IMG/VR virus record: IMGVR_UViG_3300047557_002530
Source: a virus
Lineage: Duplodnaviria > Caudoviricetes
Strand: one strand, 5' to 3'
DNA length: 64,000 nucleotides
The notes under the pieces were generated by a model. That model did no database searches and was not told the DNA's origin. It saw nothing but the letters and a program-made list of their open reading frames with translations. Of this stretch, positions 2,158 through 18,704 are shown in pieces. Numbering within the stretch: the first letter of the stretch is position 1; the number at the start of each line of letters is the position of its first letter. The position numbers and the translations under genes were made by a program.

Positions 2158-3237
2158 ATGACTGCTACAATTTCACGTCAACAACAATCGAATACTTGGG
2201 AACAATTCTGCAACTGGGTTACTAGCACTGATAACCGTCTCTATGTAGGTTGGTTCGGAGTCCTGATGATTCCAACATTGCTCGCCGCAACAATCTGCTT
2301 CATCATCGCATTTGTCGGTGCTCCCCCTGTAGACATTGATGGAATCCGTGAACCAGTCGCTGGTTCTCTAATGTATGGAAACAACATCATCTCTGGTGCT
2401 GTTATTCCTTCGTCCAACGCGATTGGACTGCACTTCTACCCCATCTGGGAAGCTGCTTCACTTGATGAGTGGCTTTACAACGGCGGACCTTTCCAACTGG
2501 TAGTGTTCCACTTCCTCATCGGCATCTATGCTTATATGGGTCGTGAATGGGAACTCTCATACCGCCTAGGTATGCGTCCTTGGATCTGTGTTGCTTACTC
2601 TGCACCTGTTGCTGCTGCCAGCGCAGTGTTCCTAGTCTATCCTTTCGGTCAAGGTTCTTTCTCTGATGCAATGCCTCTGGGTATCTCTGGTACCTTCAAC
2701 TACATGCTTGTTTTCCAGGCAGAACATAACATCCTGATGCACCCCTTCCACATGCTTGGAGTTGCTGGTGTCTTCGGTGGTTCACTGTTCTCTGCAATGC
2801 ACGGTTCTCTAGTTACTTCCTCACTGGTTCGTGAAACCACCGAGCAAGAGTCGCAGAACTATGGTTACAAGTTCGGTCAAGAAGAAGAGACTTATAACAT
2901 CGTTGCAGCACACGGTTATTTCGGTCGCCTGATCTTCCAATATGCTTCCTTCAATAACTCTCGTTCGCTACACTTCTTCCTTGCTGCTTGGCCTGTTGTC
3001 GGTATCTGGTTCACTGCTCTTGGTGTTAGCACCATGGCCTTTAACTTAAATGGCTTTAATTTCAACCAGTCTCTGCTTGATAGTCAGGGTCGTGTAGTTA
3101 ACACCTGGGCTGATGTTCTTAACCGTGCTGGACTGGGAATGGAAGTGATGCACGAGAGAAATGCACATAACTTTCCTTTGGACCTGGCTGCTGCCGAAGC
3201 AACTCCTGTTGCTCTAACTGCACCTTCTATCGGTTGA
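2158..3237 (+). CDS. psbA: Photosystem II D1 protein
   Basis: Full-length D1 ([10 protein letters not shown]...HNFPLDLA plus C-terminal extension); no intron; real start at 2158, not 2095. Confidence 0.99.
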
Positions 3238-3331: not shown

Positions 3332-3760
3332 ATGAAAACTTGCAACATTTGTGGAGAAACGAAATCACTTGATGAGTATTATATCAATAATTTTGGATAC
3401 CCTCACGGTAAATGTAAAAAGTGCTATGTTAAAAAACAGCAAGAAAAATATGACCCAATGAAAAAAAGAAACGAAAACTTAAAAAGATGTTATGGAATAA
3501 CACTCCAAGAATATAATGAAATGTTAGATAATCAAAATGGTAAATGTGCCACTTGTGGAACTACTGAACCAGGAGGTAGAAAATCTGGTAGGGGCGGTGG
3601 TGCTGATGTATTTGTAGTAGATCACTGCCACGATACTGGTAAAGTTAGAGGTCTTCTTTGTCATAGTTGTAATAGGGCTATGGGACTATTAGGAGATAAT
3701 GTAAGCGTTATTGAAAGTATGATTAAATACCTTGAGCAGCACGAAATTAATGTCTCATAA
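3332..3760 (+). CDS. Free-standing homing endonuclease, endonuclease VII/HNH family (F-CphI-like)
   Basis: N-terminal CxxC...CxxC; VVDHCHDTGKVRGLLCHSCNRAMG endo VII motif; lies just downstream of psbA, as F-CphI does. Confidence 0.85.
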   Translation: MKTCNICGETKSLDEYYINNFGYPHGKCKKCYVKKQQEKYDPMKKRNENLKRCYGITLQEYNEMLDNQNGKCATCGTTEPGGRKSGRGGGADVFVVDHCHDTGKVRGLLCHSCNRAMGLLGDNVSVIESMIKYLEQHEINVS

Positions 3761-3872
3761 TACTCAACACGAACCTATGCCTAACTGGGTAATCTGGGTA
3801 GGCGTAGGTATGATGGTATTTACGGTTCTTGTTTTTGTCTTATTCACTCTTGGGCAAATTTACTGGGGATAA
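3750..3872 (+). CDS. Small membrane peptide (40 aa)
   Basis: MSHNTQHEPMPNWVIWVGVGMMVFTVLVFVLFTLGQIYWG; one transmembrane segment. Confidence 0.5.
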   Translation: MSHNTQHEPMPNWVIWVGVGMMVFTVLVFVLFTLGQIYWG

Positions 3873-3940
3873 GTGCTAATACTCATTGACTCTTATTATG
3901 AAGTATTGTAAACTAAATATGAGAAATCACATAGGAGGCT

Positions 3941-4087
3941 ATGACTTCTTCAACACTTTCACAACCAATTCAACAAAGGGGGTGGTTTGATGTCCTGGAT
4001 GACTGGCTTAAACGAGATCGCTTTGTATTTGTGGGTTGGTCTGGACTATTACTTTTTCCCACTGCTTATTTGGCCCTTGACTGGTAG
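3941..4087 (+). pseudogene. psbD: Truncated 5' end of psbD (46 homologous codons, then a stop)
   Basis: [48 protein letters not shown]; GGAGG RBS; homology ends at 4078. Confidence 0.92.
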
Positions 4088-4199
4088 GACTGCTGAATGA
4101 CTTTTCTGGGATTGTATCTAATCTTTATTGGTGTGAAGGGATTGTTTAGAGATTTACAGAGATACAGAGAACAAACTGATAATAGGTAAAAATATAAAA

Positions 4200-4256
4200 G
4201 ACACTTTCTAAACTGGAACAGGGGCACTTCGCAGGTGCCCTTTTTGATGGTATAAT
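4200..4256 (+). promoter_or_regulatory. Early-region-type promoter/stem-loop cassette (copy 1)
   Basis: GACAC-N7-ACTGGAAC, hairpin gggcac/gtgccc, TATAAT at 4251; same layout as copies at 54877, 56835, 61331, 63439. Confidence 0.65.
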
Positions 4257-4280
4257 ACTCTCATATACAAAGAGTTTCAA

Positions 4281-4676
4281 ATGCTAAAAACTAAAACTGT
4301 AAAGATAGTAAGTGTGAGTGATTGGGATGACTTTGTAATCCTTATCTATGGAAAGCATTACAGTTTTCAACAACAAGATGGGTGTAAATCAAGAGGAACT
4401 GCTTATTTTACTGTTCCAAATCAATATGATGCGGAAGAGTTTGATAGTGAGGCAACTACAATCCCATTTGAAGTTAATGGTGAAGAAATGGGTGTGAGTT
4501 TTGAAACTTGGTTGAATACAAATTTGGAGGATACTGCTTCACACTTTGAATCTGATTGGGAGAATAAGTTGTTCTGGGAAAGGAATTTTTATCCAGATGT
4601 AAACACAATTGTTTGGGACTTATACAAACGAGGATTGCTTGAAGAAGGTGAATATATGATTGATATTGATTGGTGA
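4281..4676 (+). CDS. Hypothetical protein of early-gene type, inserted in the psbD locus
   Basis: 131-aa acidic ORF behind the promoter cassette. Confidence 0.7.
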   Translation: MLKTKTVKIVSVSDWDDFVILIYGKHYSFQQQDGCKSRGTAYFTVPNQYDAEEFDSEATTIPFEVNGEEMGVSFETWLNTNLEDTASHFESDWENKLFWERNFYPDVNTIVWDLYKRGLLEEGEYMIDIDW

Positions 4677-4737
4677 CTAAAAAGTAAAAATATTCATTTG
4701 TATAAATAATAATGTAGTTAACACAGTAGTAGTAAGA

Positions 4738-5319
4738 ATGAAACATAAGCACCATATTATTCCAAGACATATGGGTGGTAGTGATGACCCATCAAATCTT
4801 ATTGAACTGACTGTGGAAGAACACGCAGAGGCACACAGAAAGTTGTGGGAGCAATATGGTAATATCAAAGATTATTGTGCTTGGAAAGGTTTAGAAGGAA
4901 CTATTGGTAAAGAAGAGATTGTAAGGTTGCTGATGGACCCAACTGGAAGAGTTCATACAGAAGAAACCAAGAAGAAAATGAGTGAGGCACATAAAGGCAA
5001 ACCAAAGCATACACCTGAAAGTAAAGAAAAAATAAGTGAAGCAAGAAAAGGAAAGCCTTTGAGTGAGGAGCATAAAAGAAAAATAGGTGAGGCAGGTTTA
5101 GGTAATAAAAGATGTCTTGGAAATAAACTAACAGAAGAGCACAAAGAAAAACTTTCTAAAAGTATGAAAGGAAATAAAAATGCTTGTGGTCCTCAAAAAG
5201 TTAGTGAAGAAGCAAAGAAAAATAGAAGTGAAGCAACCAAAGAAAGATGGAGAAAATATAGAGAACAAAAAGGATTTGACCCTAACAAACCTATTGATGG
5301 TAGATACTCTAAAATATAG
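4738..5319 (+). CDS. HNH homing endonuclease with NUMOD3 repeats
   Basis: [34 protein letters not shown] core; repeated [12 protein letters not shown]-type motifs; TATAAATA late promoter upstream. Confidence 0.85.
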
Positions 5320-5419
5320 TGCCCGCAAGGGCACCTGCCGAAGGCAGTAAGTATAAATACACTTCCCTTTTTATCCAGTTTCCATTACAATAAATATGTA
5401 AAGTAATGTAAAGGAGGCT

Positions 5420-6484
5420 ATGACTTCTTCTGTTTTACAGACACCCTCCCAATCACAGCGTGGATGGTTTGATGTCCTTGATGATTGGTTGAAAAGGGAC
5501 AGATTTGTGTTCGTAGGTTGGTCTGGCCTACTTTTATTTCCAACAGCATACCTCGCACTTGGTGGGTGGCTTACTGGTATTACATTTATCACTAGTTGGT
5601 ATACACACGGTATTGCTTCAAGTTTTTTAGAAGGTTGTAATTTCTTAACAGCTGCGTTGAGTACCCCAGCAGATGCTCTCGGACATTCCCTTCTACTTCT
5701 CTGGGGTCCTGAGTCTCAAGGGGATTTCATCAGGTGGTGCCAACTTGGGGGACTCTGGACTTTTGTGGCGCTCCACGGATCTTTCTCTCTGATTGGATTC
5801 ATGCTTCGTCAGTTTGAGATTGCTCGTCTTGTAGGCATTCGTCCTTATAATGCTATTGCATTCTCTGGACCCATTGCGGTCTTTGTGAGTGTCTTCCTGA
5901 TGTATCCTCTGGGTCAATCCAGTTGGTTCTTTGCACCATCGTTTGGTGTTGCTGCTATCTTCAGGTTCCTTCTGTTCCTTCAGGGTTTCCACAACTGGAC
6001 CCTCAACCCCTTCCATATGATGGGAGTTGCTGGTATACTGGGTGGAGCACTGCTCTGTGCTATTCACGGAGCAACCGTAGAAAACACACTATTTGAAGAT
6101 GGTGACCAAGCAAATACCTTCAAAGCATTTGAACCGACACAGGAAGAAGAGACCTACTCTATGGTTACTGCTAACAGATTCTGGTCTCAAATCTTCGGTA
6201 TTGCGTTTAGTAATAAGCGTTGGCTTCACTTTTTTATGCTATTTGTTCCTGTTATGGGTTTGTGGACTTCCAGCATCGGTATCATTGGTCTTGCCCTTAA
6301 TCTTCGTGCTTATGATTTTGTAAGTCAGGAGATTCGTGCTGCAGAAGATCCGGAATTTGAGACCTTCGTAACAAAGAACATATTATTGAATGAGGGAATT
6401 CGTGCTTGGATGGCACCTGTAGACCAACCTGGAGCAAACTTTGTATTTCCAGAGGAAGTTTTGCCTCGTGGAAATGCTTTATGA
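5420..6484 (+). CDS. psbD: Photosystem II D2 protein, with recoded 5' and 3' ends
   Basis: Full-length D2 ending [10 protein letters not shown]; GGAGG RBS. Confidence 0.99.
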
Positions 6485-6513
6485 TATAAATAATTCTATC
6501 GTGCGGTAGAATT

Positions 6514-6960
6514 ATGGAAAAGATGGGAATGCTTACCATTCTTGATGAATGGTCTGATAAGGTTCACAGATACTGTAAAGTTCAGTGTGAATGTGGAACT
6601 ATAAAAACAGTTCGCAGATCATCTATGAAACCTGGACAAACAGTATCTTGTGGATGTTATAGACGAGAACTTGATAGAAAGAAGGGGAGAGATCTTCGTT
6701 CACCTATGTGGTCTCGGGCAAAATATAGAGCAAAACAAAAGGGTCTGGATTTTAATATCACAAAAGAAGATATTGTTATTCCAGACACCTGCCCTTTGTT
6801 AGGCACTCCTATGGAATCGCCATCATTAGATCGTATTGATTCTTCCAAAGGATATATCAAAGGTAATGTGTGGGTCATCAGTAATAGAGCAAATACTTTA
6901 AAAAATGATGCTACATTACAAGAACTCAAAACATTAGTTGAAAATCTGGAGAAACTATGA
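6514..6960 (+). CDS. HNH homing endonuclease
   Basis: SLDRIDSSKGYIKGNVWVISNRANTLKN HNH motif; N-terminal CQCECG...SCGC; TATAAATA upstream at about 6485. Confidence 0.85.
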   Translation: MEKMGMLTILDEWSDKVHRYCKVQCECGTIKTVRRSSMKPGQTVSCGCYRRELDRKKGRDLRSPMWSRAKYRAKQKGLDFNITKEDIVIPDTCPLLGTPMESPSLDRIDSSKGYIKGNVWVISNRANTLKNDATLQELKTLVENLEKL

Positions 6961-7103
6961 AAGATACTTCTACAAATCAACTTCCACCAAATCAAAAATA
7001 CATTGGGTGGAAAGAAGTAAATGAAAAAGAATTTGATGAGTTGTTTCCTCCCATCCAAAAGAAAAATCGTGAGGAAGTTCTACCGCGAGGTAATGCACTC
7101 TAA
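6957..7103 (+). pseudogene. 48-codon ORF ending in a displaced copy of the last 10 psbD codons (7071-7103)
   Basis: MKDTSTNQLPP...[14 protein letters not shown]. Confidence 0.75.
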
Positions 7104-7111
7104 AAATAAAT

Positions 7112-7139
7112 AAAAGGAGTTCTCTGAACTCCTTTTTTT
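7112..7139 (+). terminator. Intrinsic terminator (probably the original psbD terminator)
   Basis: aaaaggagttc-tct-gaactcctttt followed by a T run. Confidence 0.75.
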
Positions 7140-7210
7140 ATGCTCCTTATTCTTATTCTTTTTCAACTCTTTGGAATCCTAATGTTTATATTATCTGTTA
7201 TGCAAGACCT

Positions 7211-7330
7211 ATGATAACTTCTACAACACCATATAAATTGGCAGAGATCATTAGAGATACTTGGCCAAACCTTTACAGACCGCCAATAAAGACTTATAAT
7301 CAATCAAAAGCACAAGAAAAGAATGTATGA
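7211..7330 (+). CDS. Small hypothetical protein (39 aa)
   Basis: MITSTTPYKLAEIIRDTWPNLYRPP..., read manually. Confidence 0.45.
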   Translation: MITSTTPYKLAEIIRDTWPNLYRPPIKTYNQSKAQEKNV

Positions 7331-17796: not shown

Positions 17797-18248
17797 TATT
17801 TTATGCCTAGGTTGTCTTCTGTTATAATCTTGAATTCAATCATACGATCATCACACCATTCTTTAATAGATCTCCATTTTGATTGATTAACTGCATAAGT
17901 ATTTACTTCATTAATATAGGTTTTATTTTTCTTTTTTCCTTGAACTGGAGGAACTGTTTGTTTTTTTGGTTTTATTTCTATCACATATTTTTGGGTTTTT
18001 CCATTATTTTCAAGAACTTCAATAATAAAATCCGGAAAGTATCTACATACTTTTTGTTTTACTGGATTATAATATGGAATACAAAATTCTTCTGATCCAT
18101 ACTTTAACACATTAGGTGTGCGATCACACCACTGCATAAATTTTAGTTCCCAACTACTTCTATACACTATATTTTCGGAGTTTCCAATATATTTTTCTGG
18201 ATTTTTTGGATGAAAATATCCCTGATGATACTTAGAGTCACGAGGCAT
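17796..18248 (-). CDS. 4: Head completion nuclease gp4
   Basis: YRSSWELKFMQWCD; RYFPDFII; EIKPKKQT; NQSKW. Confidence 0.9.
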   Translation of the reverse strand: MPRDSKYHQGYFHPKNPEKYIGNSENIVYRSSWELKFMQWCDRTPNVLKYGSEEFCIPYYNPVKQKVCRYFPDFIIEVLENNGKTQKYVIEIKPKKQTVPPVQGKKKNKTYINEVNTYAVNQSKWRSIKEWCDDRMIEFKIITEDNLGIK

Positions 18249-18675
18249 TTTTCCAACCCCTGTGAAATTTTCTTTTTCCAGATAAGACCTGACCTAGATG
18301 TGTGGGATTTAAATTCAATTTTTTGCATATGTGGGATATACAATCAAATTCAATTATTTCACCTTCTTTTGAAATTATTTTTCCTCCCTTTTGGAATTGT
18401 GGATATTCGCATCCTTTATTAAGTGCTGGTTTTCCTTTTCTTTTTTTAGAAGATGTTTCTATTGCTTTACTCATATCCCTTCCCTTTGCAATTTCACTCA
18501 TTTTCTTTTTTGTTTCTTCGGAGTGTTTTTGTCCTTTCATTCCTGGAAAATGAACTCCAGTTATTATACATTCATAAGTTTCTGATACAATCGTTGCTCC
18601 ATCAACATTGAATGTTTCGCACAATTTAGTTGTATCCCAAATATACGAATGTATTTTTATTTTTTTCATATACAT
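18238..18675 (-). CDS. NUMOD3/HTH protein of homing-endonuclease type, no recognisable nuclease domain
   Basis: [12 protein letters not shown]; C-terminal CKKLNLNPTHLGQVLSGKRKFHRGW; TATAAATA upstream. Confidence 0.6.
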   Translation of the reverse strand: MYMKKIKIHSYIWDTTKLCETFNVDGATIVSETYECIITGVHFPGMKGQKHSEETKKKMSEIAKGRDMSKAIETSSKKRKGKPALNKGCEYPQFQKGGKIISKEGEIIEFDCISHICKKLNLNPTHLGQVLSGKRKFHRGWKNAS

Positions 18676-18704
18676 AATATATCAATAAGAGTATTTATAG
18701 ATAG

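Follow-up and report, generated by a model that had tools for sequence, protein, structure and literature searches.

A nuclease-linked psbD start beside a stranded one in a freshwater T4-like cyanophage

The window analysed here is the whole 64,000-nucleotide stretch of IMG/VR record IMGVR_UViG_3300047557_002530, part of a 92-kb viral contig, from a T4-like cyanophage of freshwater metagenomes; all coordinates are those of this 64-kb window. In it, the photosystem II gene psbD, which encodes D2, has two starts. The first breaks off after 46 codons (3941-4078) and is followed by a small open reading frame (ORF), a promoter cassette, a hypothetical gene and an HNH/NUMOD3 nuclease gene; the second opens a complete psbD. 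A preliminary description made from the sequence alone had listed the same parts, and all of them are present in that order. We conclude with high confidence that a nuclease-linked replacement of the psbD start is real. We propose that free-standing homing-endonuclease cassettes would have invaded psbD from both ends, each together with a copy of the end of the gene beside which it sits. In the 5' element, a small gene would be followed by a cargo gene that can be exchanged, the HNH-NUMOD3 gene, a promoter and the first 85 or so codons of psbD. Below, psbD alleles with the upstream nuclease gene are called HEG+ (HEG, homing-endonuclease gene), nuclease-free alleles HEG-, and comparison loci are given L-numbers. 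The features of the 5' element and its surroundings are as follows.

3886-3935, plus strand: resident psbD promoter-like site and GGAGG ribosome-binding site (RBS), kept with the cut-off start; the block is conserved upstream of nuclease-free psbD alleles.
3941-4087, plus strand: ORF of the cut-off start (the 5' stump), made up of psbD codons 1-46 (3941-4078) and D-W-stop; psbD homology ends at 4079, and the stump falls in the HEG- clade.
4097-4189, plus strand: sm30, a hydrophobic ORF of 30 amino acids and the first gene of the cassette; 73-97% amino acid identity across relatives (L006-8, L038, L246-250, L255-258, L260 and L262), whether a stump is present or not.
4220-4256, plus strand: hairpin with U-run (about 4220-4245), then an extended -10 promoter-like site (4228-4256, 10/12 with TG), 5' of the cargo gene.
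4281-4676, plus strand: exchangeable cargo gene, 131 amino acids (PHROG 27943).
4701-4708, plus strand: TATAAATA, a T4-type late-promoter motif, 30 nt before the nuclease ATG.
4738-5319, plus strand: HNH-NUMOD3 gene of the free-standing homing-endonuclease type (Pfam and PHROG matches, invariant catalytic residues).
5319-5359, plus strand: double hairpin and TATAAATA, in place of the usual psbD promoter in this sublineage.
5420-5674, plus strand: psbD codons 1-85, the nuclease-linked haplotype and putative co-conversion tract (HEG+/HEG- differentiation, 5' tree).
5420-6484, plus strand: full, uninterrupted psbD, 354 amino acids (Pfam Photo_RC, 5.7e-72).

The window is a short-read metagenome contig, and its bin at 3942-4062 has double depth, both of which would suit an assembly artefact or a tandem duplication within one genome. 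At read level, we examined Logan unitigs. Those of runs X1 and X2, from one study, covered 4040-4967 without a difference and crossed the 4079/4080 junction; a unitig of X6, from another study, covered 4040-4171 and crossed it too. Depth in X1 was even over the whole path, at about 100-125, and the words in the double-depth bin were common to another genotype. With full-depth junction unitigs from two studies and the same architecture in more than ten other assemblies, misassembly is ruled out. Local tandem duplication is ruled out as well, because the two psbD copies fall in different allele clades (see below). We judge these two origins so improbable that they can be set aside. An exact-match search of viral contigs with the junction 20-mer returned no match, and relatives were found by protein instead. 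X1 and X4 also contained an uninterrupted allele running past 4079 as normal psbD; nuclease-free relatives thus coexist with the window genotype in the same runs.

One further X4 unitig followed the region upstream of the stump to 3951 and then continued as the start of the nuclease-linked psbD type, on the evidence of only 11 bases. It could be the product of a deletion between the identical 18-nt RBS/ATG blocks (3931-3951 and 5410-5430), yielding a nuclease-free and probably resistant allele.

The stump belongs with alleles that lack the nuclease. A sigma-70-like site (TTGACT-17-TAAACT, 3886-3914) and a GGAGG stand upstream of its ATG, and the 18-nt RBS/ATG block, GGAGGCTATGACTTCTTC, is identical at both psbD starts, where the preliminary description had noted a near-identical RBS context. 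At the DNA level, the stump is 94% identical to psbD of cyanophage S-PM2 versus 69% to the full copy in its own window. In the comparison with uninterrupted relatives, blastn matches of nuclease-free alleles all ended at 4079, and no nucleotide-level similarity to psbD beyond this junction rose above that of shuffled sequences. The tree of codons 1-47 placed the stump among HEG- alleles. These results support the cut-off start being of the resident, nuclease-free allele type. The promoter, RBS and 46 codons described earlier as cut off were therefore confirmed exactly, with the junction present in unitigs. Over the 34 codons from RGWF to AYLAL, the stump and the full copy encode the same peptide and differ, as had been reported, at 20 codons (27 bases), all synonymously. 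The special recoding of the full copy that had been read into this did not hold up: 20 of 34 is typical of any HEG+/HEG- pair, the median over these codons being 21 differing codons (range, 16-27).

The nuclease is linked to the beginning of psbD and not to the rest of it. We compared 14 unique HEG+ with 19 unique HEG- alleles and found high differentiation between the groups over codons 1-84, which collapsed after codon 85. The tree of codons 1-47, built from 14 HEG+ and 22 HEG- rows, separated HEG+ from HEG- at 99/100, with the window's full copy within HEG+. By contrast, HEG+ alleles were scattered in the tree of codons 90-300 (8 changes), where an approximately unbiased (AU) test rejected an HEG+ clade (p 0.0019). 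The separate segment trees suggested in the preliminary description are thus incongruent; neither the misassembly nor the common grouping of 5' and middle segments that it had named as outcomes speaking against it occurred. Pairwise profiles give the same picture: the window differs by one base from L005 over 4398-5674 and by one base from L246, a contig of 93 kb which comes from another assembly and lacks the 3' nuclease, over 3846-5778, stump included. L246 diverges from codon 120 on, and both loci fall to about 80-88% identity with the window beyond the shared tract. Taken together, the allele data support the view that the nuclease travels with psbD codons 1-85 only; the claim that the element carries its own psbD N-terminus stands in the form of this linked haplotype.

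The unusual residues pointed out further along the full copy are present, but they do not serve as evidence of escape from cleavage, since they are polymorphisms shared with other alleles, including nuclease-free ones. The ITF and SSF variants also occur in L005, L021, L212 and L216, DALGH in L007, L178, L193 and L194, and FIRW in L169, L170 and L182.

The product of 4738-5319 has three NUMOD3 repeats (Pfam, 1.1e-18), which form a separate DNA-binding module, and matches a PHROG family annotated as homing endonuclease (7.8e-23). Its Pfam HNH match (E 3.4e-4) reaches 21.2 bits, just under the cut-off of 21.4. Across 28 homologues His5/His6, Asn20, His29 and His33 are invariant, and an AlphaFold2 (AF2) model shows two strands and a helix at residues 2-40. 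Sequence searches against solved structures gave no useful match for this nuclease or for the second one, downstream of psbD. Homologues were intact in all relatives, with dN/dS of 0.18-0.34; their catalytic N-terminus is nearly invariant, and the NUMOD3 half is mosaic. In about 35 viral or metagenome contigs they precede psbD by 66-104 nt, whatever stands further upstream, at 67-100% identity (48% in L209-212); these psbD-upstream loci are L005-L024, L038, L209-212 and L246-L262. S-PM2 and 19 further unique psbD alleles lack the nuclease, and among cultured phages we found none with it next to psbD. It is not encoded in an intron or intein: psbD at 5420-6484 is one continuous frame, and its product can be aligned with other D2 proteins over the full length. 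An HNH motif, a DNA-binding module, a locus with fixed presence or absence and co-conversion that decays with distance, all features of homing endonucleases, are found together here, and they support the assignment of 4738-5319 as a free-standing homing-endonuclease-type gene tied to psbD.

It is very doubtful that the nuclease is a mere passenger, inactive or directed at another target, with the mosaic arising from the generally high recombination of cyanophage photosystem genes. psbD is indeed mosaic everywhere, but the nuclease ORF is intact and under purifying selection, and its position beside psbD is fixed down to 48% identity. Moreover, the complete separation in the 5' tree fades exactly past codon 85, and a second nuclease family mirrors the pattern at the other end of the gene.

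We propose the following mechanism for the 5' element. The first stump would have arisen by one non-homologous join at codon 46. The nuclease would cut a nuclease-free psbD between about codon 46 and codon 85. On the left of the break, the recipient's stretch from promoter to about codon 46 would find its partner in the donor's stump. On the right, identity to the donor over codons 47-85 is about 70-75%, so that stable pairing would need sequence past codon 85, where the alleles hardly differ from one another. Repair would bring in everything from sm30 through the cargo and the nuclease gene to the promoter and the donor's diverged codons 1-85, and the recipient's own start would survive as a new stump, renewed at each invasion. 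Serving as the left homology arm, the stump would let the cassette enter coding sequence without an intron. The stump has HEG- sequence states and yet occurs together with the nuclease; the recognition site therefore probably extends across codon 46 or lies downstream of it. We infer nuclease activity, cut position and direction of transfer from the sequences compared. On balance, we consider this homology-arm model probable for the 5' element, with considerable room for doubt.

The comparison of stumps across relatives carries this model. An intact 46-codon stump followed by sm30 occurs in the window, L246, L255 (nuclease 77% identical) and L262 (67%), and the junction is identical in L246 and L255. 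A decayed stump, intact to codon 22, then frameshifted and about 50 nt shorter, occurs in L006-8, L247-250, L258 and L260. There is no stump in L038, L256 and L257, where the ORF sm46 abuts sm30, and other HEG+ contigs are arranged psbA-nuclease-psbD, with neither stump nor sm30. In peptide, the 46-codon stump is 87-100% identical to working D2 starts. Similarity among loci is 57-100% over codons 1-14 and 80-100% on the sm30 side. Codons 1-14 of 8 out of 10 stumps are 90-100% identical to a working HEG- allele, with different stumps matching different alleles; the stumps of L249 and L260 match working HEG- alleles less well (76-83%). All four combinations of left type (that of the window and L248 versus that of L255 and L007) and stump form (intact versus decayed) were seen, which requires recombination inside the stump. 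In the tree, stumps take at least four positions, one split having 98/99. The nucleases of stump-bearing lineages have diverged to 67-77% amino acid identity, with dS of about 0.6. Since the left parts of stumps have undergone repeated recombination with working psbD starts and the stump is intact in deeply diverged lineages, we read it as a left homology arm. The earlier idea that the old start was left as a scar is right in that the stump is of the resident allele type; it falls short because a scar is not all that the stump amounts to: it recombines with working alleles, and it is not an obligatory part of the element.

Several points weigh against the homology-arm model. The stump is absent from about half of the roughly 35 HEG+ contigs, and such stump-free contigs indicate that the nuclease can persist, and probably spread, by ordinary flanks. 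L262 and the window have diverged in the short spacer that follows codon 46, so that the same junction is likely in L262, though not exact. An AU test on 72 columns did not reject a single stump clade (p 0.19), and several stump origins are accordingly not significant by this test. Fixed differences between HEG+ and HEG- alleles lie at codon 24 and at the third bases of codons 62 and 76; these may be candidate immunity positions, and linkage alone may explain them. The matches from a Foldseek search with the AF2 model were weak and local, to the HNH cores of colicin, pyocin and Gme (root-mean-square deviation of about 1 A over 36 residues, E > 1). Finally, the comparison sequences are short-read metagenome contigs throughout, and conserved psbD blocks allow strain-switching, which may have created or moved the breakpoints at codons 85 and 120.

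Some of these observations would be expected if the stump were instead a one-off scar, left by a single unequal non-homologous crossover between co-infecting phages, in which case it would be inert, the nuclease would spread by flanking homology and later stump exchanges would be incidental. Many HEG+ loci lack the stump, a single stump clade was not rejected, decay of the 22-codon form is plain from its frameshift and deletion, and the stump-to-sm30 arrangement common to all stump-bearing loci fits one origin. However, a neutral relic of an age corresponding to the nuclease dS should not remain an open 46-codon frame so close in peptide to working alleles; moreover, the left parts mostly match different working alleles and occur in every type-by-form combination. 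We therefore regard a one-off scar as unlikely.

Selection might also keep the stump as a co-opted leader, either for the expression that its promoter, RBS and short ORF would give to sm30 and the cargo or for some use of its 48-amino-acid peptide. This idea, which is compatible with the homology-arm model, seems to us improbable. The sm30 ATG follows 10 nt after the stump stop, both promoter and RBS are undamaged and sm30 is conserved wherever the stump occurs; the intact stump could thus be kept because its promoter and translation serve sm30, a further point against a homology arm. Yet sm30 is equally conserved without a stump (L038, L256 and L257) or with a frameshifted one (L247-250), which makes it independent of the stump ORF.

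As for the other genes of the cassette, sm30 had no family match. We rejected it as a psbD derivative or a continuation of a decayed stump, since its nucleotide similarity did not rise above that of shuffled sequences; its peptide weakly resembles D2 residues 277-297 (p about 0.002), with no DNA support, which we took as an effect of membrane-helix composition. The cargo slot holds other genes in L007, L038 and L255, and a variant in run X4 skips exactly the cargo stretch, 4198-4697. Homologues of the cargo family PHROG 27943 occur mostly in non-cyanophage contigs. The motif TATAAATA has five plus-strand copies in the 64 kb, three of which are at 4701, 5352 and 6485; the late promoter that the element had been said to own is thus represented by this motif, in this sublineage.

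The 3' end of psbD carries a mirror case (6352-7139), in which a replacement tail is followed by a second nuclease gene and then by ten stranded tail codons with their terminator. Its features downstream of the full psbD are as follows.

6485-6960, plus strand: TATAAATA and the second nuclease gene (6514-6960), 148 amino acids, HNH/EndoVII-like (PHROG 3322, 2.9e-32).
6957-7103, plus strand: orf48, 48 amino acids, whose last 10 codons and stop (7071-7103) are the stranded original psbD tail (the 3' stump).
7112-7136, plus strand: terminator of the original psbD, which here follows the 3' stump (z -6.0; conserved in L005).

The stranded tail at 7071-7103 and the working tail at 6452-6484 encode the same peptide and differ at 7 of 11 codons, stop counted; the stranded tail and the terminator match the true psbD end of L005. 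Unitigs span this cassette in X1 (6310-7279) and X4 (6322-7204). Members of the second nuclease family lie directly downstream of psbD in about 55 contigs and in the isolate S-SKS1, and a duplicated psbD tail also occurs in L172, L173, L175-179, L181 and L194. In L172, L173, L178 and L179 the nuclease ORF runs in frame into the tail, and L181 has the tail at the corresponding place; in L175-177 and the window it is reached via orf48, the window nuclease having its own stop, and the tail of L194 is a 28-amino-acid piece. Judging from the sequences, the in-frame form could derive from the orf48 form by deletion between GAG repeats, and we therefore did not count the two forms as independent. The window's second nuclease is itself mosaic. 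It is about 98% identical to L166 in a stretch running from the last ~15 psbD codons to 6860, and 93-100% identical to L175 from 6694 through orf48, so that its first two thirds are L166-like and its last third, with orf48, L175-like. A tree of the 3' segment of psbD (150 columns) gave no resolution, and the linkage between the psbD 3' end and the second nuclease is thus drawn from pairwise profiles only.

Within 6368-6436, the working D2 has V for the usual Y (FETF-V-TKN) and GA for the usual HE (DQP-GA-NF); these variants sit just upstream of the tract that the window has in common with its nearest second-nuclease relative. The isolate S-SKS1 (L245; NC_020851.1, 21500-27500) is a cultured Synechococcus phage that is not T4-like. 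Its psbA is followed by an endonuclease VII gene and an HNH gene, and its psbD by a 51%-identical member of the second nuclease family, annotated only as 'endonuclease'.

Upstream of the stump, the island continues with a third nuclease gene beside psbA.

2158-3237, plus strand: psbA, without an intron.
3332-3760, plus strand: endonuclease VII-type gene, F-CphI-like, the third nuclease of the island, beside psbA (Pfam PF02945, 1.5e-23; 42% identity to S-PM2 F-CphI).
3732-3872, plus strand: sm46, an ORF of 46 amino acids homologous to the end of S-PM2 ORF178.

The S-PM2 intron is not present in the window's psbA, where the Arg codon at the S-PM2 intron position is AGA. Elsewhere in the window, a minus-strand ORF of 145 amino acids (18238-18699) has NUMOD3-like repeats, no recognisable catalytic domain and a copy of TATAAATA ahead of it (18692-18699); it may be what is left of a homing endonuclease.

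The psbA and psbD genes of cyanophages are textbook examples of auxiliary metabolic genes, whose patchwork ancestry is ascribed to general recombination. At psbD, a specific agent of this mosaicism becomes visible: nuclease cassettes that would move codons 1-85 at one end of the gene, and about the last 15 codons at the other, between genomes. They offer a route by which a homing endonuclease could enter a coding region without an intron or intein, and the predictions on cut sites and preferential inheritance are testable. Naive use of the 5' and 3' segments of psbD in phage or host phylogeny is unsafe. We put forward only tentatively the wider view that such elements enter without introns by means of replacement ends and renewed stump arms, that the stump ends, at about codons 46 and 344, mark cut sites in vivo, and that these elements are a main driver of mosaicism in phage, and possibly host, photosystem II genes.

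Among known systems, the T4 enzymes SegF and SegG home without introns (Belle 2002 and Liu 2003, cited in PMC3037559 and PMC10055350). As in the T4 seg/mob systems, the nuclease gene here lies between conserved genes, often behind a late promoter; the T4 enzymes are reported to cut the nuclease-free neighbour gene and co-convert flanking markers. In the T4 cases, by contrast, homology is supplied by ordinary flanking genes on both sides, and no duplicated gene piece is reported to be left behind. F-CphI, which adjoins psbA in cyanophage S-PM2 (Zeng, Bonocora and Shub 2009, cited in PMC3037559 and PMC10055350), is likewise a free-standing nuclease beside a photosystem II gene in a T4-like cyanophage. 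It belongs to another enzyme family, however, and its target is psbA at the intron insertion site; no stranded ends are described for it. 'HEG islands' bracket essential phage genes (Barth et al., PMC10055350). Here too, several nuclease classes flank one conserved gene and mark exchange boundaries, and the DNA-binding repeats are mosaic. Replacement termini, stumps and scars are not described for HEG islands, and 'duplication' there refers to repeats inside nuclease genes (PMC10055350).

The closest likeness is to the mobile endonuclease ORFs (mORFs) of fungal mitochondria, which make 'gene hybrids' of atp6 in Allomyces macrogynus and of atp6, atp9, cox2 and nad3 in Glomus (PMC3630166); partial C-terminal duplications of cob and atp6 beside endonuclease ORFs have also been described (PMC6279837). 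As in those cases, the endonuclease gene arrives with a foreign gene end and the native end is stranded beyond it, the stranded piece matching close relatives and the working piece having diverged mainly at synonymous sites. The endonuclease ORF can run in frame into the native tail, as in the four in-frame loci described above for the 3' end. In the other points the window's 3' element matches the fungal mORFs throughout; its nuclease has its own stop. At both ends of psbD, a foreign working end is paired with a stranded native end, and the arrangement recurs in independent genomes: at the 5' end, in the window, L246, L255 and L262, plus the decayed form in at least nine contigs. The differences are that the carrier is a phage rather than an organelle, that the enzymes are HNH-type rather than LAGLIDADG or GIY-YIG, and that both ends of one gene are hit. 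Moreover, the cited mitochondrial cases are all C-terminal, whereas the 5' element replaces the gene start and must therefore carry a promoter and an RBS. In the literature we searched, there was no account of psbD-linked homing endonucleases or of stranded gene ends in phages, and as far as our searches show, psbD-linked nucleases have been annotated only as 'endonuclease' (S-SKS1). The arrangement is thus known from fungal mitochondria and, as far as we found, apparently undescribed for phages. The finding would extend terminus-replacing endonuclease elements to phages and to the N-terminus of a gene. New features are the setting, which is an auxiliary metabolic gene of a phage, the kinds of enzyme, an N-terminal version that has to bring a promoter, a stump that recombines with working alleles and the invasion of both gene ends.

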